The notes: generated by a model from the sequence alone, not told the origin. DNA of 20,781 bases from Candidatus Thorarchaeota archaeon (GCA_016840855.1 JAEORO010000123.1:1-20781), one strand, 5' to 3'. Counted from the first letter of the stretch, positions 620 through 13,032 are shown. Made by a program: numbers and translations.

Positions 620-2026
620 CTAGATTACTCCCGCATGCTGAAGATACTTTGAACGCATTCGTATCCCATTCAACATCTGCACAGCTTCTTCTATGGTGTC
701 CCCTACTGAAATTCCATTTAATTCAAAACCACGGATAATAACTTCATATTTTTCCAAGTCTGGGACATATGCAATGACTGTTTTCTGATGACGCTTAGCA
801 ACATTTGCCACTCGAGCTCCAATCTGGAGGGAGATGCCTGGCGCATATGGTAAGAGAAGCAATAGAGCCGCATCAATTGTGTCAAATCCGAGCATTTGGT
901 CAAGAACTTTTTCATAATCTATGTCTGATGCACTGCCAGTGAGATCACATGGATTTCGAAAGGATGCAATACCTTGATACTCTGGAGTCATCATATCTCT
1001 CATCGATGCTTGTTGCTCCTTGTCAAAGAGTGGCATCAAGAGACCATATTGTGCAGCTTCATCACTTGCGATTACTCCGTGACCACCACTAACCGTCAAG
1101 GTGCCAACTCTGGAACCTTTCATAGGCTTAGGTTTGAAAGAGAACACTTTTGCATACGCCATCACTTCATCCTCGTCTAGAGCGTGAATAACACCATATT
1201 GGTTGAAGGCGGCATTAGTAATAGCGTGGTCTCCTGCAAGTGACGAAGTATGACTCTGTGTCGCTCGATGACCAGCTTCTGACTCTCCTCCTTTAAGGAC
1301 CACAATTGGTTTCTTTGGCACAATTTTTTCGCACGCCTCAACAAAATCTCTTCCTTCTCCAGGTGCGAATCCTTCAATGTATGCCAAAATTACATCTACC
1401 CGATTATCGTTCCCAAAATACTCAACGAAGTCAGTCACTCTCGTCTGTGCGGCATTACCAATTGATATTGCAGCAGCAATTCCAACATCCCTACCAGCAA
1501 ACTCCTCAAGCCTTTCTATTAGCCATCCTCCGCTCTGAGAAATAATAGCAACATTTCCTCTTCTGGGTCGAGCAACACGTTCTGACGGTAGGAAAAATGT
1601 ATCAAGAACATCTGGCACAAAAACTCCTATGCAGTTTGGTCCGACCATCGTTATTCCATATTTGTTAGCAATATCGACAATCTCAGACTGAAGGTTAGCA
1701 CCAGCTTCTCCAACTTCACTAAATCCACCAGAAACAACGATGACCGACTTGATGTTCTTTTCTCCACACTCAGTCAAGATTCCGGGTACATATTTTGCTG
1801 GGACTGATATAACAACAAGGTCAATGTCATTTGGAGCGGCTGTAAGGGACTTATGGACAGCAATTCCTTCAACTGTCCCTCCCTTAGGATTGATAGGATA
1901 TGTGGGAAGTCCATTTTCGAAGGCAAGCTTCCGAAAAATGACATTACCTGGATTGAACGGGTTCGTTGTTGAGACGCCAACCACAGCTGCTACTCTTGGA
2001 TTTAGCATCTTCTTTAGGCCTATCAT
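620..2026 (-). CDS. acdA: Acyl-CoA synthetase (ADP/NDP-forming) alpha-subunit-like protein (CoA-binding + ligase domains)
   Basis: CoA-binding Rossmann start (VAAVVGVS, YPINPKG, DLVVISVPA), SGGFSEVG, GPNCIG, SQSGG, SIGN, YIEG, phospho-His motif QSHTSSLAG, TVSGGHG and NPCDLTG. No ATP-grasp domain is present. Confidence 0.85.
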   Translation of the reverse strand: MIGLKKMLNPRVAAVVGVSTTNPFNPGNVIFRKLAFENGLPTYPINPKGGTVEGIAVHKSLTAAPNDIDLVVISVPAKYVPGILTECGEKNIKSVIVVSGGFSEVGEAGANLQSEIVDIANKYGITMVGPNCIGVFVPDVLDTFFLPSERVARPRRGNVAIISQSGGWLIERLEEFAGRDVGIAAAISIGNAAQTRVTDFVEYFGNDNRVDVILAYIEGFAPGEGRDFVEACEKIVPKKPIVVLKGGESEAGHRATQSHTSSLAGDHAITNAAFNQYGVIHALDEDEVMAYAKVFSFKPKPMKGSRVGTLTVSGGHGVIASDEAAQYGLLMPLFDKEQQASMRDMMTPEYQGIASFRNPCDLTGSASDIDYEKVLDQMLGFDTIDAALLLLLPYAPGISLQIGARVANVAKRHQKTVIAYVPDLEKYEVIIRGFELNGISVGDTIEEAVQMLNGIRMRSKYLQHAGVI

Positions 2027-2117: not shown

Positions 2118-3185
2118 TCAAGGTTTCATCTGAGCTAGAATCTCACTTGTTCTAGGTTCAGCCAATATCGCGTGCTGAAGTTTACCAAGCAGCTTTGCTA
2201 TCTCTGCATAGATTACCTGACGAGCAGGATCTGACGCTGAGGTCGCATTTTGAATAGCTTCCTCTACCTCTTGATTCAGTCGTTTGATAATCCGCTTTTC
2301 TAAGTCTGGCCCACCCCATCCAAATCCATCGAAAGCTGTTTGAGCCTCTAGGATTTTCTCTTTGACATCCAGCTTATCCTCTTTAAGAACAGGTTCTATA
2401 CCTTGGAAATACTTTGCAACAGCTCTCTCTACTCTTTCCATCTCTGAGCCATTCAAATAACTCTCTTGTTGACGATGTTTCATGAGATCCTGTAGGAGCC
2501 GAGCGCCTGGAGCTTCTGTGAGAAGTCCTTTAGCTATTTTTACTAGGATACGTGCTGGTAGTTCAATTACATCTCCGAAAAATGGTGACTCGGATCTATA
2601 TCGATGAAGCTCTCGTAGTGACTCCAACCAGAAAGTTGGAAGGAGAATGTGACACCGACCTGAATACTGTTGTATCAATCTTTGACTTTGACCTATCAGG
2701 CCAAACAAATCATCTTCAACGTCCACTTTCCGATAAATTTCTAATGGCTTTACTTGTTCCTCACCTACAAGAGGTACTAATTCAACATCCTTGCTCTGTG
2801 CAGTTCCCTCCACAGAAGCTACTCCTCCCGGTGGAGCTTCTTTTCCATCAAGAAGGGAGAGTATCTCCTGGGCGGCTTGTCCGGACTCCATTTGTTTGGC
2901 CTTATCTGACAACTTGGGTAGGAGACTCTCTATCTGTGAAAGGCGTTTCACAATGAGACTGATAATATTTTGAGTTGAAGGTGGCACTCCTTTCATTGTG
3001 GTGGCTTCTTCCATCCATTTCCGTGTCCTTAGAAGCCCTTGAGTTAATGAGTCCACTCTGTCAGGGTCTATTGTTTCTTCAACCTGTGTGCTAATTAGAA
3101 AGTGGATGAGTGTTGAATTCAAGGTGACAATAAGAAGAAGTCTATCAATGAGATCTTCGTATTGAAAAGAAGAGGAGTCAGACAT
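2118..3185 (-). CDS. Hypothetical alpha-helical protein (355 aa), third gene of the tubulin-like operon
   Basis: Long ORF with a strong Shine-Dalgarno GAGGTGA in the 16-nt gap after the upstream stop. Two helical-looking halves are joined by a G/P/A linker (GKEAPPGGVASVEG). No family motif recognised. Confidence 0.8.
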   Translation of the reverse strand: MSDSSSFQYEDLIDRLLLIVTLNSTLIHFLISTQVEETIDPDRVDSLTQGLLRTRKWMEEATTMKGVPPSTQNIISLIVKRLSQIESLLPKLSDKAKQMESGQAAQEILSLLDGKEAPPGGVASVEGTAQSKDVELVPLVGEEQVKPLEIYRKVDVEDDLFGLIGQSQRLIQQYSGRCHILLPTFWLESLRELHRYRSESPFFGDVIELPARILVKIAKGLLTEAPGARLLQDLMKHRQQESYLNGSEMERVERAVAKYFQGIEPVLKEDKLDVKEKILEAQTAFDGFGWGGPDLEKRIIKRLNQEVEEAIQNATSASDPARQVIYAEIAKLLGKLQHAILAEPRTSEILAQMKP

Positions 3186-3201
3186 TCTGTCATCACCTCT
3201 C

Positions 3202-4596
3202 TTATTCCATTGTATCGCCCGGAGTCATATAATAGCTGAATAACTCACGAAAATCATTGATTGCATCAACTAGTTCTTTTCTAGTAGTTCCTTTTGATCT
3301 CATAAACCACCCCTGCTTTAGTGGGGAGGCTCCACTATGCAAGTTAACTAGCTGTGTTGCTTCATTAATTATCTGGACGAGTTCTGGAATCTTGGGTAGA
3401 CCAAGAAGAAGCAGCAGATTGGTCTTCGGGTCTTCTTCATGGTATTGTACATAGCATGGAGTAATCGCAGCACCAGGTGCGATGAACTTGTCAAGTGCCT
3501 CCTTCAGATGCATTCCAAACTCCGCCTTCGCTACATGCCTAGGTCCAGACAGGACATAGTAAACACTCTCTGCATTTGGTTCTTCGCCAACATCTGCATA
3601 GGAGCACTCCGTCACTGCATAGTCAATCATTGTTCTTAGTTGTTTGGCCATACTACCTGCATCTGGAATCAAACCAATGTCTGTATAGAGTGCAGGAACC
3701 ACGATTGGGTCAAGTTTTCTAGCATAGTCAGCCAAGTCAGTCGTAGGGAACACATCTTTTGATTTTTCCCAGACACCAGGAGAGAGCATTGCTTCAACAA
3801 CATCTAGCGCCAAGGGATTAACAAGCTCAACAAATGCTTGTTCAGTTCGAGCTTCTAAGTCGGAGCTCTCGTCTAGTGTTGATGGTACCATCGTTTCAAT
3901 TGAGTCAATGTCCGCAATATCGACCTCAAGCTCCCTTTGTAGATAATCCACCGTATCGCCCTTTCTCCATTGGAGGATTCGTTTCAGCATTGTCCTATTT
4001 GAGAGTAGAATCGTTAGATCTGCTCCACGCTCTTGCAGCTGTGCTCTAAGTAGCTTTGATACAGCCCAAATCGAGTTCAAGGCTTCACTTGACTGTCCTT
4101 CAAATGGAAGGATTCCAACGACATAGACGAATATTCGGCGTCCCTCTTCTTCTTGGAATCTCTGTTTGAGCAACTCAATTAGAGCTGGTGTACCTCCACA
4201 TCCAGTACCACCGCCTAGACTTGTGAAGATACAAAAACCAGACACCCCTTCAAACCCAAGATTACTAAGCTGGTCAAAGATGATGTCTTTGGATTCCATA
4301 ATCGAATTATACCCATCCATAAATCGACCACCCACACCAATTTCCGAAGCACCATAGAGTAGCGTATTTTCTTTGGGGATTCCGTACTTCTGGCGTACCT
4401 TGGTCAGGTCTGCTCTGTCAGTGTTTATCAAAAGATATCCTCTGACTCTTGATGGTAGTTTCTTGTCTCTGCTGGTTTGGAGATATGACCCTACAATGTT
4501 TGAGCCACATTCACCAATTCCAATAGCGAAAACTTCAGCTGCTTTTGTTGTATCATCAATCTCAACAGGTTTCTTTGGTGGACCGCTTCCGAACAT
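3202..4596 (-). CDS. Divergent tubulin/FtsZ-superfamily GTPase
   Basis: T1-like AIGIGECGSNIV, LINTDRADL, T3-like GVGG, signature SLGGGTGCG (GGGTGCG at 4215-4195), GILPFEG, LLSN, and T7-like TTDLADY (3744-3724). Confidence 0.92.
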   Translation of the reverse strand: MFGSGPPKKPVEIDDTTKAAEVFAIGIGECGSNIVGSYLQTSRDKKLPSRVRGYLLINTDRADLTKVRQKYGIPKENTLLYGASEIGVGGRFMDGYNSIMESKDIIFDQLSNLGFEGVSGFCIFTSLGGGTGCGGTPALIELLKQRFQEEEGRRIFVYVVGILPFEGQSSEALNSIWAVSKLLRAQLQERGADLTILLSNRTMLKRILQWRKGDTVDYLQRELEVDIADIDSIETMVPSTLDESSDLEARTEQAFVELVNPLALDVVEAMLSPGVWEKSKDVFPTTDLADYARKLDPIVVPALYTDIGLIPDAGSMAKQLRTMIDYAVTECSYADVGEEPNAESVYYVLSGPRHVAKAEFGMHLKEALDKFIAPGAAITPCYVQYHEEDPKTNLLLLLGLPKIPELVQIINEATQLVNLHSGASPLKQGWFMRSKGTTRKELVDAINDFRELFSYYMTPGDTME

Positions 4597-4608
4597 TGGT
4601 TTCTTCTC

Positions 4609-7299
4609 CTATTTCTTCCGTGAACCGACTAGAGCTTGGGCGCTCTCTTTTATAGCCCAGCTTAGGTATGAACTAATATCTTCTCGGCTATAGGTTTCTC
4701 TTATTTTCCTTATTGCATCTTCAATGAACTTATCGCGTTCATCCTGTTTTGCTGCAGGACTAAATCCAGTCATGAACATTCTAAGGGACTTGTGCCAGTC
4801 ATCCATTGAAATGGCTTTATCCAGCCATTGGCTCCTCATTTCCTCTAACTCGTGGAAGTTAGCGATTGCCTGGTCTAGGTCGACCGCTTCGGTAAGACTA
4901 TCTTCCAACGTCTTCATTTTCTTGATATTGAACACAAGTTTGCTGAAGTCCTCTGGATATTTCTCAGCAACTCGTTCAATTGTAGAATAGTATTGACTTT
5001 TTGTTCTCAAATCAGTTTCATGAGTTTCCCCACTCTTAGTGGCTATGCTTTTAATCATCTGCAACATTTCTTCCTGTATGTTTGCGAGTGTAAGGCAAAC
5101 ATCAAGTGCTTCATTTACATGAGGTGAGTCTGTTTCCAGTTTTGATGGGACTTTATCAATAAGCACCTTTAATCGCTCAACAAATTCAGACATTCCTTGT
5201 TGTTCAAATAGTGATAAAGCTCCTTTGATCTGAACGTATGCCTCATCCACACGTTCTCTTATCTTCTTGTGAACATTTGGTGAGGTAGTTAAATTCTGGA
5301 GCTGATCGAATGCATCTGCAGCTTCTTCGAGCTCCGATGGAGGCTTATTTTTGAGGTCATTGAGCATCTTTAGCTCTTTCTGAAGCTTCACACCAATGCT
5401 ACTTGCACGTTCTAAACTAGTTGTGAGAGAGTCAACCTCAGTACCAAGCTTCTCTATTATTTTGTCTTGGATTTTCTTTTCGTATATTTCAACCATTTTT
5501 CGTGCAATGGCTGGAAGACTGAATACCGTATCAGCTGCAACACCAACATTATTCAGTTCACTAATTGCTTCTTGCGCTTCATGAGGTATCTCTACTCCTG
5601 CACCCATCAATTTTGCAGCTGCAAGCCTTATTTTAACACCAAGTCTGTATCTAAGATTCTCAAGAGCATCTTGAGCTTTAACAAGTATGCCATCTTTGAT
5701 AGAACGCATCTCTGATTTTATCTCAGCAAAATCTTCCATGCTTTGAATTCGAGTAGCGCCTTCATCGAGCTCAACAATAATCGGCATGAAAATCTCAGCG
5801 TAAGCAGGTTTTACAGTTTGAAGGTCATGAACAATTGCGTCAATCTCTTGTTGACAAGCTTCTCGGAATGTTGCAACACCACTCTCAACAGCACTTCTTA
5901 GACTTGTCAAAGAACCAAGTAGGTATACAATTCCGCCTTCAAGTTCCTCAACCTTTGGGGCTTTCTTACTCAATTGAGCATGGTCCAGAACCCTGTCAGC
6001 TGAAGTTGCGAGCTCATTGAATTTTGCTAGATAGCTGCGAATACTATCTGTGATGTTTTTACGAAAGTCATCATCCATTCCTTTTGCTTGGAGATATACT
6101 CTGACCATCTCATCAATGTCAGCTGTCTTCAAAGTTTTCTTCGAATTAGCAATGAATTGGCGGACAGCAACAACATCTTTTATTCCTGCATCTTCCGGGG
6201 CTTCGGTTGCTTTTTCAACGTCATCTAATAGCTCAAACAGACGTTCTCTAAGTGCAATTTTCACTTGCCCTTCCCATTCCACCATCCGCTGATAACTAGA
6301 TAATAGAGGGGCAACGTTGTCTCCTTCAACATTTACATTTGGCGGGGTTGGAATCACCTCTGCAGTTGTTGGGATACCACCTTCGACAATCTTCGTTGTG
6401 ACTTCGTGCTTAATGTTTATTATTTTATCACGGAGTGCATTAGCCATCTTAACTTGAGCCGAATGAAGCTGATTCTCAAGAGACACGAGTGCAGTAAGTG
6501 TATCAGCTTTTGCAGCATCCCTAGCAATTAGACGGAGTTCTTTAGAGAATTCCATTGGCAGTTCGAGACCTAACCTAGCTGCAGTTTCAACTGATGCTTG
6601 AAGGGATTCTGTTGAACCCACGAGAGAAGTACCGAGTAATTTGCTAACTTCATCCTTTCTCCCGTCTAGAAATTCTCTATCCGATTGTAGTTTATCGTTT
6701 AGAATTGTTAGATCTCTTAGCGATAGACCTATGACCTCATTATTTGAAACAGTCGTGGCCACTTCACTCTTATCAATCGTGATATGTCTCTCATAGGTTT
6801 CCACAGTAGCTTTGTTTTCATCGAGAGTTGATTTAACATCTCGCGCAACATCTTCAAGAATGACCATGTATAATTTTGAGAAAGCTTTAGCAAACTCATG
6901 AAGTTTTTCGAAGTCTTTGAAATCGCCTGCTCCTATTCCTGGGAAATTCAGAGCTGATATTCCTTTTACTTCTGCAGGTTTGAAAGTTTGAATTTTCGGT
7001 GCGATAGCTAGTGTGTCTTTGTGTTCTTTTCGGAAGTACTCTGCAAAGTCACGAGTAACTCTCATGAAATCCGTTTCAAGGTCGTTAGCTGTTTTCTCAA
7101 CTTGAGCTTGAACCTTTCTCTTTTTCATAAATCCTGATGTAGCGAGATCGTTCTCCATCTTTGTCAAGTTGGCAAAGATATCATAGAGTTGACGCACCTG
7201 ACGGTCCGCTTGTTCTTCCATTCCAGGATTTACTGAAACAAGGATTCCTTTTAGTTCGGCGAGTTTATCTAATTCTCGTCTCCATCCGCTAGTGTCCAA
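4609..7299 (-). CDS. Large all-helical/coiled-coil protein (896 aa), first gene of the tubulin-like operon
   Basis: TTG start preceded by GGAGG. E/K/A/L-rich heptad-like sequence throughout, with no Walker A motif, TM segment or signal peptide seen. Confidence 0.85.
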   Translation of the reverse strand: MDTSGWRRELDKLAELKGILVSVNPGMEEQADRQVRQLYDIFANLTKMENDLATSGFMKKRKVQAQVEKTANDLETDFMRVTRDFAEYFRKEHKDTLAIAPKIQTFKPAEVKGISALNFPGIGAGDFKDFEKLHEFAKAFSKLYMVILEDVARDVKSTLDENKATVETYERHITIDKSEVATTVSNNEVIGLSLRDLTILNDKLQSDREFLDGRKDEVSKLLGTSLVGSTESLQASVETAARLGLELPMEFSKELRLIARDAAKADTLTALVSLENQLHSAQVKMANALRDKIINIKHEVTTKIVEGGIPTTAEVIPTPPNVNVEGDNVAPLLSSYQRMVEWEGQVKIALRERLFELLDDVEKATEAPEDAGIKDVVAVRQFIANSKKTLKTADIDEMVRVYLQAKGMDDDFRKNITDSIRSYLAKFNELATSADRVLDHAQLSKKAPKVEELEGGIVYLLGSLTSLRSAVESGVATFREACQQEIDAIVHDLQTVKPAYAEIFMPIIVELDEGATRIQSMEDFAEIKSEMRSIKDGILVKAQDALENLRYRLGVKIRLAAAKLMGAGVEIPHEAQEAISELNNVGVAADTVFSLPAIARKMVEIYEKKIQDKIIEKLGTEVDSLTTSLERASSIGVKLQKELKMLNDLKNKPPSELEEAADAFDQLQNLTTSPNVHKKIRERVDEAYVQIKGALSLFEQQGMSEFVERLKVLIDKVPSKLETDSPHVNEALDVCLTLANIQEEMLQMIKSIATKSGETHETDLRTKSQYYSTIERVAEKYPEDFSKLVFNIKKMKTLEDSLTEAVDLDQAIANFHELEEMRSQWLDKAISMDDWHKSLRMFMTGFSPAAKQDERDKFIEDAIRKIRETYSREDISSYLSWAIKESAQALVGSRKK

Positions 7300-7341
7300 G
7301 ATGCCTGCCTCCGTCTAGTATGGCTTTTTGCGTGAGGATGT

Positions 7342-7355
7342 CTTAAGTTCTTTCT
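7342..7355 (-). promoter_or_regulatory. Putative BRE/TATA-like promoter of the coiled-coil/tubulin operon
   Basis: Minus strand reads AGAAAGAA-CTTAAG about 43 nt before the TTG at 7299, followed by GGAGG. Spacing fits an archaeal promoter with a short leader. Confidence 0.5.
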
Positions 7356-7444: not shown

Positions 7445-7460
7445 TAGAAACACCCTTAAG
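7445..7460 (+). promoter_or_regulatory. Putative BRE/TATA-like promoter of the WD40 gene
   Basis: AGAAACACC-CTTAAG about 48 nt upstream of ATG 7509, followed by a GAGGAG SD. It mirrors the element on the opposite strand. Confidence 0.45.
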
Positions 7461-7508: not shown

Positions 7509-9416
7509 ATGGATAAAGGCTCTTTGAGCTCAAATGGTACACCTTCTCTAAATCATGAGAAGGTCATCAAATTAGAAGCAGCTGCAGTTGACCTTGATTA
7601 CGATGAGAACTTTCTATATGCTGCATGTCGAGATCTGAAAGTTCGAGTCTGGTCTAAGACTGACTGGCATTTAGTCGCTGAGCTAGGGGATACGGATACT
7701 CCACCTCTAATTGTTGATGTTGATGATACCCAAGTTTTCGCTACATGTGAACGAAGAGTCTATGTCTGGAAGAAAGATACATGGGGGATGACTGGCTGGT
7801 TCGAGCTCAGTTATGAAGCTCTGACATCGACTCTTTATGGAGATTACTTCTATGTTGGCGCAAATGATGGAAGACTCGTATCTATCCAAAAAGACACTCA
7901 TGAAACTTCAAGCTGGCAGCTTCACAAGTCAGATCTTACAAGTTTATGGTCTGATGATAAAATCATATGCACGAGTACCAAGAAGGAAGAGCCTCGGGTT
8001 TGGTTGAAAGACCGAGACACTGCTCCTTCTGAACTTGCTCGCCTGGATAAAAAAGGCAAAGGCGGAGTCCTCTCAGGAAATGCTGAATTCATTCTAGTAG
8101 GAAACTCGACAGGCGAGGTTGCTGTGTATGATCGTGTTGAATGGGAACTAGTCAAAACACTGGAATCTGGTTATACAAGTCCAATTTCGTCTATGTGGGC
8201 AAGCAGTCACTATCTGATTGCAGCGACCGTAGCTGGAACTCTAACCATTTGGGATTTGAAGAGAGGTGAAGATATTGGAGAAATCACTCTAAATGGTCAG
8301 AAAATTGAGTGGGTCACTGCAGATCATGATCTTCTCTATATTGCGACTCAGGAAGGAATCACAATTGTTCGTTTGACAGCAGCTGGGAGACCTTTCGACA
8401 TATGTTCTGATTCTCCTGCAATATTGACTGATAGTTTATTGAAAACCTCACCATATGATGTTCTTGAGGGAGCTCTTGAACTCGAGAAGAAAGCTGATGA
8501 ACACTTTCAAGAAGGTCTTTTCCATGATGCGGTTCTTGCTTATGAAAATGCCTTACAATTATTGATTGACAATACACATGCATTACTAGAAGTGCCAGCG
8601 GAACGACAACATCTAACAGATGAACTAAACACCAGACTTGGAAAAGCTCTTCTAAAAGCAAAGATTCAGGAATTACAAACAATAGACCATGAGATTCGTC
8701 AGTTGTCTGAGGAACTTGATGTCCGCAAAAGGACCGATCAGAATCCTGAAGATATTGAGCGATTGTGGAGTTCTGCTGGAAGAATAATTAAGGAGAGTCG
8801 AGTTCTCGCTGAGGCTCAAGCTAGTGATATGCTAAGTTATCAGCTTACGCATGTCGTAGAAACTCTTGAGTTTAATTTGAATGAAGCCATGTCTAAATTT
8901 GATGTTTTTCGAGAAACTATCAATCAGGCTTTGGCTCTCACACGTCAGATCTCTAATGAATGGCGATGGATGGAAAGGAGACGTACAAAACTTCCAGAAC
9001 GAAAGCAGTTTCTCGAAGGAGCAATGGAGAAACTTCAGGCTGCCCTTGAAAAGTCTGATCCTGAAGGTGAAGTGAGAAAAATCCTTTCGGGAGCTCTTGA
9101 TGAGTACAAACGATTGTATAGTCAAATCGACCGGATTGTGACATCATACGAAACCGAGCTTGAAAAATCGTTCAGCTCAAAGGAAGAAGCCCAAGAAGCA
9201 ATTGATGGACTTCTCGCCATTGTACCAAAAAAGATTGAAGCGCTAAACGATATCGCAGATGAAACTGAACGGGATTTGGAACAGAAACGTATTATCGCCG
9301 CACTTGAACAGGCTCTTAACACAGCAAAGTCGTTCAAAATGAATAAATCCGCAGAAACCATTCAAAAAGAGCTCGAGAAGGTTCAACCTTCTGAAGAGCC
9401 AGAGAAAAACAAGTGA
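7509..9416 (+). CDS. WD40-like beta-propeller protein with a MIT/TPR-like three-helix segment and a C-terminal helical/coiled-coil region
   Basis: aa ~20-290 carry ~40-aa repeats ending VRVWSK, VYVWKK, LVSIQK, PRVWLK, VAVYDR, LTIWDL. aa ~315-388 read ALELEKKADEHFQEGLFHDAVLAYENALQLL...ERQHLTDELNTRLGKA. The rest is E/K/L-rich helix. Confidence 0.82.
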   Translation: MDKGSLSSNGTPSLNHEKVIKLEAAAVDLDYDENFLYAACRDLKVRVWSKTDWHLVAELGDTDTPPLIVDVDDTQVFATCERRVYVWKKDTWGMTGWFELSYEALTSTLYGDYFYVGANDGRLVSIQKDTHETSSWQLHKSDLTSLWSDDKIICTSTKKEEPRVWLKDRDTAPSELARLDKKGKGGVLSGNAEFILVGNSTGEVAVYDRVEWELVKTLESGYTSPISSMWASSHYLIAATVAGTLTIWDLKRGEDIGEITLNGQKIEWVTADHDLLYIATQEGITIVRLTAAGRPFDICSDSPAILTDSLLKTSPYDVLEGALELEKKADEHFQEGLFHDAVLAYENALQLLIDNTHALLEVPAERQHLTDELNTRLGKALLKAKIQELQTIDHEIRQLSEELDVRKRTDQNPEDIERLWSSAGRIIKESRVLAEAQASDMLSYQLTHVVETLEFNLNEAMSKFDVFRETINQALALTRQISNEWRWMERRRTKLPERKQFLEGAMEKLQAALEKSDPEGEVRKILSGALDEYKRLYSQIDRIVTSYETELEKSFSSKEEAQEAIDGLLAIVPKKIEALNDIADETERDLEQKRIIAALEQALNTAKSFKMNKSAETIQKELEKVQPSEEPEKNK

Positions 9417-9431
9417 CAATACTCTTTGAAT

Positions 9432-10079
9432 CTAGGATGCTGCGATTCCATCAATAGAAGGATAAGCCTCGTCAATGAAATCCTCGTCATCAACCAAATC
9501 CATCCATTCTTCTGCAAGCTCCTCTATAGATGGATCCAACGAGATTGCATATTCGACATCTTGCAGTGCTGTAGCGAAGTCCTCGAAGTAGAGATGACAA
9601 AGTGCAAGATTGTACCAAGCTACTGCTGATGAAGGATTTAGATCAAGTGATTTCTCGAGAGCATCCATTGCTTCCTCCCATTGGTCCTCTGTGATTAGAG
9701 CAGTTGCAAGAAGCTCCCATTTTCGCACATCTAGAGGTCGGAGTTTTAGACTCTCTTTTAATGCCCAAATACCTTCAGAATTCTCGTTAAGCAAGAGATG
9801 AATATATCCCTTATCTGCCCATTTTGAAGAAGAAGTTGGTTCAATTTGAAGAAGATTGTTAAGTGCTTCAATTGCACTCTTTGGTTTACCCATTTCTAAA
9901 TTACAGATGACCAAATTTTCCCAAGCGCTCACATTTTTTGGATCTAAGGATAGTCCTACGTGAAGTTTATCCCGTGCTTCGCTGAATAATCTTTTTTCAA
10001 TTAAACGTGAAGCTTGTCTAAGAAAAGAATCGACGCTATCAATATCAGAAGAGTTTTGGTCCAACGCTCGATGCTCCAT
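9432..10079 (-). CDS. Tetratricopeptide repeat protein (~5 TPRs, acidic tail)
   Basis: 34-aa periodic repeats: LSLDPKNVSAWENL, LQIEPTSSSKWADKG, LKLRPLDVRKWELLA, LDLNPSSAVAWYNLA. Confidence 0.88.
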   Translation of the reverse strand: MEHRALDQNSSDIDSVDSFLRQASRLIEKRLFSEARDKLHVGLSLDPKNVSAWENLVICNLEMGKPKSAIEALNNLLQIEPTSSSKWADKGYIHLLLNENSEGIWALKESLKLRPLDVRKWELLATALITEDQWEEAMDALEKSLDLNPSSAVAWYNLALCHLYFEDFATALQDVEYAISLDPSIEELAEEWMDLVDDEDFIDEAYPSIDGIAAS

Positions 10080-12513: not shown

Positions 12514-13032
12514 TTATGCCTTTTTTGAATCACAAGCTTCACAAGGATCATTCACATGAGCGCAGAACTCTCTATGAATATCACACATCACACCTAGATC
12601 TCTCATGAATTTGATGATGCGATTGATTTCGCTAGTCATAGCTTCGAAGATATCTTCGTCTTCATTCGATCTTGTCTTCTCGTATTCTGCAATCATTGCG
12701 TCAGCTGCTTTGTCAATTTCCTTCACTACTCGTTCTGGCAGACTTACTTGATCCCCTCTAGATCTTTGACCCTTTTTTTTCAGTAGGTATTGGGTGATTG
12801 CAGGTTCAGTCACTCCAAGCATTCTAGCAATCTCTTTCTGAGTGATCTTGTGATCAACCATTTTCCCCTCCTCATTTAAGCGAGGAACCACCTTTGTTTT
12901 CATAGCTTTGGCAAGCTCTCTTCTTATTGCAGGTAGAACATACCAGACCTCAACTTCTTGAGGCATCATCCATGTTCTCCTCTTAACCTGTTTTTCCTTC
13001 GAGACCTCACCTGTAGACATTGCATGCACCAT
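12514..13032 (-). CDS. Archaeal XRE-type HTH transcriptional regulator with a C-terminal Cys/His cluster
   Basis: PQEVEVWYVLPAIRRELAKAM, HTH TQKEIARMLGVTEPAITQYL, and C-terminal CDIHREFC...CEAC. The start may be the second Met (13020). Confidence 0.85.
   Translation of the reverse strand: MVHAMSTGEVSKEKQVKRRTWMMPQEVEVWYVLPAIRRELAKAMKTKVVPRLNEEGKMVDHKITQKEIARMLGVTEPAITQYLLKKKGQRSRGDQVSLPERVVKEIDKAADAMIAEYEKTRSNEDEDIFEAMTSEINRIIKFMRDLGVMCDIHREFCAHVNDPCEACDSKKA

Follow-up and report, generated by a model that had tools for sequence, protein, structure and literature searches.

What do three closely packed genes on a Candidatus Thorarchaeota contig encode, when the middle one belongs to the tubulin/FtsZ superfamily and the other two fall into no family of the Pfam or NCBIfam databases? 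We analyzed a stretch of 20,781 nucleotides (nt) (GCA_016840855.1 JAEORO010000123.1:1-20781; "the window" below is this full stretch, along which all coordinates are counted), the minus strand of which carries four open reading frames (ORFs) in a row, of 896, 464, 355, and 468 amino acids (aa). These are genes A, B, and C, followed by a gene for an acetyl-coenzyme A (acetyl-CoA) synthetase. The original prediction, made from the sequence alone, read the first three as a candidate novel cytomotive system of a probably Asgard-type archaeon, in which a divergent tubulin/FtsZ guanosine triphosphatase (GTPase) works with two dedicated helical proteins. Our comparisons indicate that the unit is probably an uncharacterized cytoskeletal filament system, and we favor, with some reservation, the reading of A-B-C as a cytoskeletal module of three genes, specific to Asgard archaea and inherited vertically. 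As a tubulin-superfamily gene accompanied by dedicated neighbors, the unit is of an ordinary kind; its members are distinct, being a GTPase clade of its own and two unannotated partner families.

Gene A occupies positions 4609-7299 (minus strand; 896 aa, TTG start), gene B, the GTPase, positions 3202-4596 (minus strand; 464 aa, ATG start), and gene C positions 2118-3185 (minus strand; 355 aa, ATG start). The gaps of 12 nt between A and B (4597-4608) and 16 nt between B and C (3186-3201) agree with those first proposed, and the packing is tight enough for coupled translation. Named contigs encoding a 99%-identical B protein carry the label Candidatus Thorarchaeota, so that the host is indeed an Asgard archaeon. 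The source assembly comprises 3.36 Mb in 259 contigs and is 92% complete.

Conservation of Gene Order

Gene order was compared by tblastn in two sets of loci. The 45 close loci lie on named Thorarchaeota or Promethearchaeota contigs, with B proteins 86-99% identical to that of the window. Gene A is directly upstream of B in all 37 of them that include upstream DNA, the other eight beginning inside or at B, and gene C is directly downstream in all 44 with downstream DNA, the remaining locus ending inside B; order and orientation are identical throughout. The 16 distant loci, searched with A and C, come from further lineages of the phylum at family level, their B proteins being 43-77% identical to that of the window. 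Of these loci, 14 retain A-B-C at partner identities of 19-57% (A) and 23-59% (C), and A stands directly upstream of B in all 16. ORF maps give lengths of 873-1185 aa for A, 440-499 aa for B, and 293-380 aa for C across loci. Because the arrangement recurs in distant lineages at partner identities as low as 16-30%, it is far beyond chance; the conserved module of the original prediction is supported.

The two distant loci that keep A-B only, L083:8020-12780 and L093:4560-9331 (genomes G067 and G072), hold a second B paralogue, 51% identical to B. This paralogue occurs in some genomes (4-6 Mb) of one Asgard family, with an A-type gene of its own and no C-type gene. The 1140-aa gene directly upstream of it matches the A family's hidden Markov model (HMM) at 5.5e-113 and 1.3e-110 in the two loci; a 311-aa gene further upstream is unannotated and does not match the C family. 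Genomes with the second paralogue have a single C gene, located at the primary locus.

Two further features were seen in this family. At the second-paralogue loci, a gene for a 739-aa Gtr1/RagA-type small-GTPase protein lies convergently downstream. Downstream of the primary unit comes a fourth gene in the same orientation, 252-297 aa in length (L092:5884-6729, L089:10814-11572, L082:10559-11452, and L081:10629-11489), which might encode a further helical partner restricted to this lineage. A Pfam scan of the first three of these yielded two weak, sub-cut-off matches to Apolipoprotein A1/A4/E (4.4e-7 and 7.3e-4) and none for L082.

Phyletic Distribution

The three families were surveyed in 400 Asgard species representatives from 33 families, with E-value thresholds of 1e-20 or below for B, 1e-10 for A, and 1e-5 for C; the genomes are related rather than independent, and the counts are accordingly given without a statistic. 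Matches to B were found in 126/400 genomes, to A in 129/400, and to C in 123/400. All three are restricted to one common set of nine families; the other 24 have no matches, including the two largest of these (0/135 and 0/31). Most of the positive genomes belong to families f1 (75/85 for B, 76/85 for A, and 73/85 for C), f11 (21/22, 22/22, and 20/22 in the same order), and f14 (15/19, 16/19, and 16/19). Families f30 (5/5) and f6 (4/4) have all three genes in every member, as do the single representatives (1/1) of f2, f3, and f5, and f12 has B and A in 2/2 and C in 1/2. Gene C is usually present in one copy per genome. When the tables were compared by hand, B and C occurred together in 121 genomes, B only in five, and C only in two, all seven discordant genomes being at most 86% complete. 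This is the distribution of a single unit that is acquired or lost in its entirety. The source labels of the homologues range over Thor-, Hod-/Heimdall-, Hermod-, "Asgardarchaeia," and Baldrarchaeia.

The GTPase

The B protein scores 72.1 bits against the Pfam Tubulin model (PF00091; cut-off 33) over residues 21-205, which places the nucleotide-binding GTPase domain at positions 3982-4536 (minus strand), the same coordinates being returned by the genome search. Conservation of motifs was assessed in 18 family rows that represent different lineages and share 43-76% identity with B. Invariant in all 18 are G26xG28E29xG31, G87xG89G90, G128GGTGCG134, N174, N200, and P284..D287..D290. One of these segments is the tubulin signature loop G128-G-G-T-G-C-G134 (4195-4215, minus strand), in which Cys133 replaces the usual Ser (or Thr) of tubulin and FtsZ in 18/18 rows. 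As a speculation, a Cys beside the nucleotide phosphates in GGGTGCG could make assembly redox-sensitive. Another is the T7-type loop P284-T-T-D287-L-A-D290 (3727-3747, minus strand), whose P284, D287, and D290 are invariant; in the profile-profile alignment its counterpart in CetZ is "VVDxsDI." In tubulin and FtsZ, the active site of each subunit is completed by acidic residues in the T7 loop of its neighbor, and by analogy those of B are expected to activate guanosine triphosphate (GTP) hydrolysis in the neighboring subunit. The family also has an invariant C-terminal motif (W430-F431..K435-G436), a specific insert of about 45 residues (approximately 213-256), and a tail of its own. Identities of 43-76% across Asgard classes imply strong constraint over the whole protein.

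Several measures place B nearest to CetZ. A single-sequence search of the Protein Data Bank (PDB) gave Haloferax CetZ1 (4b46) as the best match at 1.8e-10, and the B family profile again ranked CetZ1 4b46 (1.9e-13) at the top, with 3zid at 2.3e-8 and CetZ2 at 4.5e-8. Next came beta-tubulin (~4e-7), gamma-tubulin and OdinTubulin (~3e-6), and BtubA and AtubA (~1e-5), the tubulin-type matches covering only the N-terminal GTPase domain (~100-130 residues). Among the matches listed there were no FtsZ chains, apart from CetZ-type entries deposited under FtsZ-type names. Alignment by hhalign of the B family to 22 CetZ_C-bearing proteins (probability 99.8%, E 7.5e-28, 335 columns) spans residues 21-422, and B therefore has the full two-domain fold. 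In scripted hhalign comparisons the E-value was 1.4e-28 to the CetZ set and 6.1e-19 to the FtsZ set.

B does not itself classify with any of the named families. None of the Pfam C-terminal models CetZ_C (PF21011), FtsZ_C, Tubulin_C (PF03953), and TubZ-like_C matched it at E of 1 or below, and its 31.4 bits against the NCBIfam ftsZ model (TIGR00065) compare with a cut-off of 295.2, so that B is not assigned to FtsZ. Membership of the superfamily, as originally predicted for the middle gene, follows from the PF00091 match, the nucleotide-binding loops (with the Cys variant), and the T7 loop; B falls outside CetZ (by the CetZ_C model and its clade placement), FtsZ, tubulin proper (by Tubulin_C and full-length similarity), and the TubZ systems.

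Phylogeny of the GTPase

A phmmer scan with B over 1.84 billion representatives found 103 proteins at E of 1e-3 or below, five of them at 1e-30 or below. The relatives matched over their full length were P0107 (56% identity), P0245 (45%; its cluster labels are mostly Baldrarchaeia), and P0250 (32%; 6.5e-27), further matches covering the GTPase domain only. For the phylogeny we collected 78 relatives, namely 76 full-length proteins from the phmmer scan and the genome's own two FtsZ-type genes. CetZ_C was detected in 36 of these (e.g. P0262, 1.8e-54), FtsZ_C in three, TubZ-like_C in three, and Tubulin_C in one. A quick tree had 90 rows; the careful tree (IQ-TREE, LG+C20+F+G4 PMSF [posterior mean site frequency], unrooted) had 49 rows and 388 columns, after 41 long-branch rows and redundant clade members had been dropped.

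The 11 rows of the B family form a clade with support of 100/99 in the careful tree, and a clade of 12 CetZ_C-bearing rows that excludes them is supported at 100/98. The FtsZ group (five rows, 98/95) includes both of the host genome's own genes. The B family is joined by P0250 and P0259 (100/99), and these together by an unnamed 12-member group, six members of which are in the tree (97/94). The quick tree has the same groupings, with the B family at 100. A long branch subtends the family (stem 0.70, then 1.15 below). Nesting of the B family inside canonical CetZ or FtsZ is thus excluded, in agreement with the absence of CetZ_C, FtsZ_C, and Tubulin_C matches and with the divergence first claimed for this GTPase; the tree being unrooted, the family may be sister to CetZ.

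Rows of the B family group by host family (f1 with f2, f5 with f6, and f11 with f12). Such grouping is what vertical inheritance would be expected to produce. The guanine plus cytosine (GC) content of the A-B-C unit is unremarkable, at 0.41-0.44 equal to that of the rest of the window.

The host genome has two further tubulin-family genes, scoring 160 and 151 bits against Pfam Tubulin, which form the core of the group labeled FtsZ; that label derives from the FtsZ_C domain in 3/78 rows, counted over the whole collection. The nearest outgroups of the B family, P0250, P0259, and the 12-member group around P0266, P0277, and P0329, are unnamed metagenomic proteins with no C-terminal Pfam domain. 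A search for P0250 in the 400 Asgard genomes gave no match at E of 1e-30 or below.

The Helical Partner Proteins

Both neighbors of the GTPase were predicted to be helical, and their AlphaFold2 models are all-helical, with mean confidence that speaks for genuine folded proteins. The model of A, built on a 19-row alignment, has a mean predicted local distance difference test score (pLDDT) of 86.1 and a predicted template-modeling score of 0.39, with many helices of 35-43 residues. It suggests an elongated multi-unit rod of about six to ten helical repeats of ~110 residues each. Spectrin repeats, tandem three-helix units of ~106 residues, may offer an analogy for such a rod, as may EzrA, a bacterial helical-repeat regulator of FtsZ. 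The clearest pair of repeats, residues 216-328 and 329-455 (5935-6654, minus strand), was found by hhalign of segments at a probability of 90.7% (E 1.2e-6, 105 columns), other pairs of ~110-residue segments being weaker (20-55%). Longer orthologues of A (1140-1185 aa) match the repeat-pair part of the profile twice, from which we infer that length differences in the family reflect repeat number.

The best-conserved part of A is its C-terminal region (approximately residues 770-896; 4612-4992, minus strand), with invariant W835, H836, Y878, and L879, and tblastn matches to A in the most distant loci center on the C-terminal half. From this conservation the region is a candidate contact region. 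Foldseek of the A model against the PDB gave no match at E of 1e-3 or below, and most of A is barely covered by fold searches. We regard the dynein tail, WAVE complex, and gamma-tubulin-complex subunit among the hits as noise (E 0.05-0.6, template-modeling score ~0.1). The best PDB sequence match of the A profile, apolipoprotein A-I (3.5e-3, residues 465-590), is attributed to amphipathic-helix composition and not to homology. The ESM Atlas returned for A only its own Thorarchaeota cluster (0.86).

The model of C (mean pLDDT 81.8) is likewise all-helical and consists of two domains and a linker. An N-terminal three-helix bundle (residues 4-112; 2850-3176, minus strand) leads into a disordered linker (residues 102-146) and a C-terminal helical domain (residues 150-355; 2121-2738, minus strand) modeled at pLDDT 90-97. 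In the alignment the C-terminal domain carries the motifs D159..WG, LLP.FW, EAP.ARLLQ, WGGPDLEKR, and a terminal MKP. Searching 5.8 billion proteins with the C profile gave 211 matches at E of 1e-3 or below; the best 120 of these have no Pfam domain, and the named ones are hypothetical proteins from Asgard-labeled sources. Foldseek of the C model against the PDB found no match at E of 1e-3 or below, with the C-terminal domain barely covered, and the structural neighbors are generic helical bundles that align to the N-terminal bundle only. The C profile matched nothing significant among PDB sequences (best 0.091), and the ESM Atlas gave nothing usable.

No relation between A and C was detected by hhalign, and in Pfam and NCBIfam neither matches a membrane anchor or a known filament-binding or DNA-binding family. 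The earlier impression that these neighbors are unlike the known partner families of tubulin-superfamily proteins is thus upheld by the Pfam, NCBIfam, PDB-sequence, and fold searches, in which nothing beyond generic helical bundles was matched; with fold searches of this coverage, we make no claim of a new fold for A or C. Complex prediction for B with C scored 0.11 against a mark of 0.32, which is no answer and speaks neither for nor against binding.

Expression Signals

Each of the three genes is preceded by a Shine-Dalgarno sequence that can be read directly, as the original prediction had noted. That of gene A, GGAGG (7308-7312, minus strand), lies 8 nt ahead of the TTG; that of gene B, AGGAG, overlaps the TAG stop of gene A; and GAGGTGA precedes the start of gene C. 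In 11 aligned Thorarchaeota upstream regions the GGAGG of gene A is invariant (11/11) and the start codon is TTG in 10/11 and ATG in 1/11, so that the start of the long gene A ORF is credible.

Upstream of the unit, where the original prediction had noted one BRE/TATA-like element, a conserved CTTAAG box (7342-7347, minus strand), 43-48 nt ahead of the gene A start, is a plausible TATA-like candidate promoter element of the three-gene unit, judged from the sequence. A second CTTAAG box (7455-7460) faces the divergent WD40 gene described below. Both boxes are palindromic and lie in the divergent intergenic region, each 43-54 nt ahead of the start codon that it faces, and their TTA.G columns are invariant in the 11 aligned upstream regions (11/11). 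The pair may represent the archaeal TATA box as it occurs locally, or else a site bound by a shared regulator. Scanning the stretch for bacterial-type promoters and terminators gave counts at shuffle level, and Rfam has no matches within the window. Four metatranscriptome contig sets searched at 85% likeness gave zero cover of the stretch, which has no bearing on expression either way.

Genomic Surroundings

The unit sits among metabolic genes, and its neighbors are not division genes. Downstream of C, after a gap of 91 nt, the fourth ORF (620-2026, minus strand; 468 aa) is of the adenosine diphosphate-forming acetyl-CoA synthetase alpha type (TIGR02717, 6.1e-109, under the equivalog cut-off of NCBIfam). 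An AT-rich TATA-like stretch, ATATAAGG, lies ~45 nt ahead of its ATG, and the gene probably has its own promoter. It adjoins the unit in 42/45 close loci, and the 16 distant loci contain only one match to it, at 32% identity (L080). We rejected it as a member of the unit because of the 91-nt gap, its own TATA-like stretch, and an adjacency seen essentially in close relatives only.

On the other side, a 635-aa WD40/beta-propeller protein is encoded divergently from the unit (7509-9416, plus strand), and beyond it a 215-aa tetratricopeptide repeat (TPR) protein (9432-10079, minus strand). These genes are kept in Thorarchaeota-family loci and found in 0/16 distant loci, save one match to the TPR gene (L090), and were also rejected as members. 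Farther along, a 172-aa ORF with no Pfam family (12514-13032, minus strand) is flanked by genes for an enoyl-CoA hydratase and a Sir2-family protein.

Proposed Mechanism and Alternative Explanations

By analogy with tubulin and FtsZ, B would most likely assemble head to tail into protofilaments in a GTP-dependent manner, hydrolysis being triggered by the next subunit; we infer polymerization because the nucleotide-binding loops and the T7-type loop, on which the tubulin/FtsZ mechanism depends, are kept. A and C would most likely be partners devoted to the GTPase and produced together with it. From its shape and gene context, A could have a scaffolding, bundling, or spacing role, either along filaments or between them, and C, on the same grounds, could be an adaptor or regulator that connects filaments with some other structure. 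A role in cell shape, protrusion, or membrane organization appears more likely than one in division, since two ordinary FtsZ genes are retained in the genome and B has its closest named relatives in the cell-shape proteins CetZ. A more ambitious version would make the unit a third Asgard filament system beside Lokiactin and FtsZ, in which a CetZ-like polymer, a repeat rod, and an adaptor, the latter two from new families, shape cells, protrusions, or membranes, the rod being a prokaryotic counterpart of eukaryotic repeat-rod linkers. We put this forward tentatively and consider it rather doubtful.

Several observations weigh against a filament module of this kind. The C-terminal domain of B matches no Pfam C-terminal model, so that its assembly may differ from that of known filaments; the insert and the family-specific tail may likewise give it different assembly properties, and the signature loop has the invariant Cys in place of Ser or Thr. 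Neither A nor C has a membrane anchor or filament-binding domain recognizable in Pfam or NCBIfam, and the roles assigned to them are drawn from shape and gene context. Conserved adjacency is evidence of a functional link, not of contact. Moreover, C is not obligatory for every member of the B family, because the second paralogue has no neighboring C.

This last point would suit a different arrangement, in which A and/or C are assembly regulators that bind the unassembled GTPase and cap, sequester, or chaperone it, like stathmin or the tubulin cofactors: a paralogue without its own C is what a shared or dispensable regulator might leave. The compact conserved domain of C, with pLDDT above 90, would also suit a specific binding module, and the conserved order and shared phyletic pattern fit any tight partnership. 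We nevertheless consider regulators of this type unlikely, given that no similarity to stathmin, tubulin cofactors, or other regulators was found in Pfam, NCBIfam, or PDB sequences, and that an 896-aa rod with a lineage-varying number of repeats resembles a sequestering protein less than it does a spacer or scaffold. It is distinctly unlikely that the unit is a division accessory, that is, a third FtsZ-like ring or a ring regulator acting with FtsZ1 and FtsZ2. B is of the same superfamily, two FtsZ genes are available in the genome for it to act with, and bacterial helical-repeat FtsZ regulators such as EzrA exist, but the family is absent from 24/33 Asgard families (0/135 in the largest), which presumably divide too. 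B is also closer to CetZ (E 1.4e-28) than to FtsZ (6.1e-19) and reaches 31 bits against the 295 of the ftsZ model, and division genes are not among the neighbors.

A divergent C-terminal domain, an insert and tail, the Cys in the signature loop, and the long stem (0.70, then 1.15) could together also describe a GTPase that has given up polymerization and acts as a non-filament switch in a complex of helical proteins. Such a switch is very unlikely: the T7-type loop, which is of relevance only when GTP is hydrolyzed at the interface between subunits, shows no variation in 18/18 rows, and 43-76% identity across Asgard classes indicates strong constraint over the whole protein. Finally, a small operon centered on a divergent tubulin-like GTPase is also the layout of TubZ systems, and the unit might be compared with a type III partition system segregating a chromosome or an integrated element. 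This is extremely improbable for a chromosomal unit of ordinary GC content among metabolic genes, whose B tree follows the host families, against a mobile origin. A and C match no DNA-binding family of Pfam or NCBIfam and B no TubZ-like_C, and no iteron- or centromere-like repeat array was found in or beside the unit, where only two-copy matches of 14-23 nt occur.

We therefore retain the reading of A-B-C as a cytoskeletal module. It is common (126/400 Asgard species genomes) and constitutes a ready-made three-protein experimental system. If an assembly of filament, scaffold, and adaptor is correct, it would add a major component of the Asgard cytoskeleton and two new cytoskeleton-associated families; if it is not, the tight conservation of the three genes would still point to a cellular machine of unknown kind that is shared across the lineage.

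Comparison with Known Systems

Publications are compared here on the basis of their accessible text. Santana-Molina et al. (2023; PMC9871819) describe "Asg.Tub," a CetZ-like, Asgard-only group with an unstable position between CetZ and tubulins, a C-terminus that matches no other family, and unknown neighboring genes, mostly with coiled-coil regions. For this group the paper names Heimdallarchaeia and Lokiarchaeia, and it calls the group scarce, whereas the B family occurs in 126/400 Asgard genomes with labels from Thor- to Baldrarchaeia. [quoted passage not shown] The account of "Asg.Tub" fits the B family, so that the clade is probably already in print under that name, a match made by description and not by sequence. 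The novelty originally claimed was to this extent overstated. The description of the triad may be new: in the accessible text of the publications we did not find the conserved order of A, B, and C, the families of the two partners, the distribution they share, the second A-B pair, or any experiments, and supplementary figures may show some of the neighborhoods.

Among named families, CetZ (4b46, 4b45, 3zid) is closest to B by single-sequence, profile, and hhalign measures, and like B it is archaeal and additional to the FtsZ1/FtsZ2 division pair. B differs in having no CetZ_C, in its position outside the CetZ_C-bearing clade, in the ~45-residue insert and the tail with its invariant WF..K-G, and in its signature GGGTGCG where CetZ has GGGTGSG. 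Unlike the CetZ of Euryarchaeota, the B family comes from Asgard archaea, and gene A adjoins it in every case.

TubZ-TubR-tubC resembles the unit as a small operon of a divergent tubulin-like GTPase with dedicated partners. It differs in that here there is no DNA-binding family match, no centromere repeats, and no TubZ-like_C, and the unit is chromosomal with an inheritance that looks vertical. In BtubA/B-BtubC of Prosthecobacter, a tubulin-superfamily filament gene is co-transcribed with a helical-repeat partner that stabilizes the filament (PMC9871819), an organization like that proposed for A-B-C. BtubC is of the TPR type and BtubA and BtubB are true tubulins, whereas the GTPase of the present unit is CetZ-like, matched by BtubA and BtubB at ~1e-5 over the N-terminal domain only, and its partners match neither TPR nor any other family in Pfam. 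The Asgard and eukaryotic tubulins (OdinTubulin 7evb, AtubA 9f6t, and alpha-, beta-, and gamma-tubulin) belong to the same superfamily as B but match it over the GTPase domain only, B having no Tubulin_C. True tubulins are reported from ~1% of Asgard genomes (PMC13394414), whereas the B family is present in about one-third of the species representatives surveyed here.

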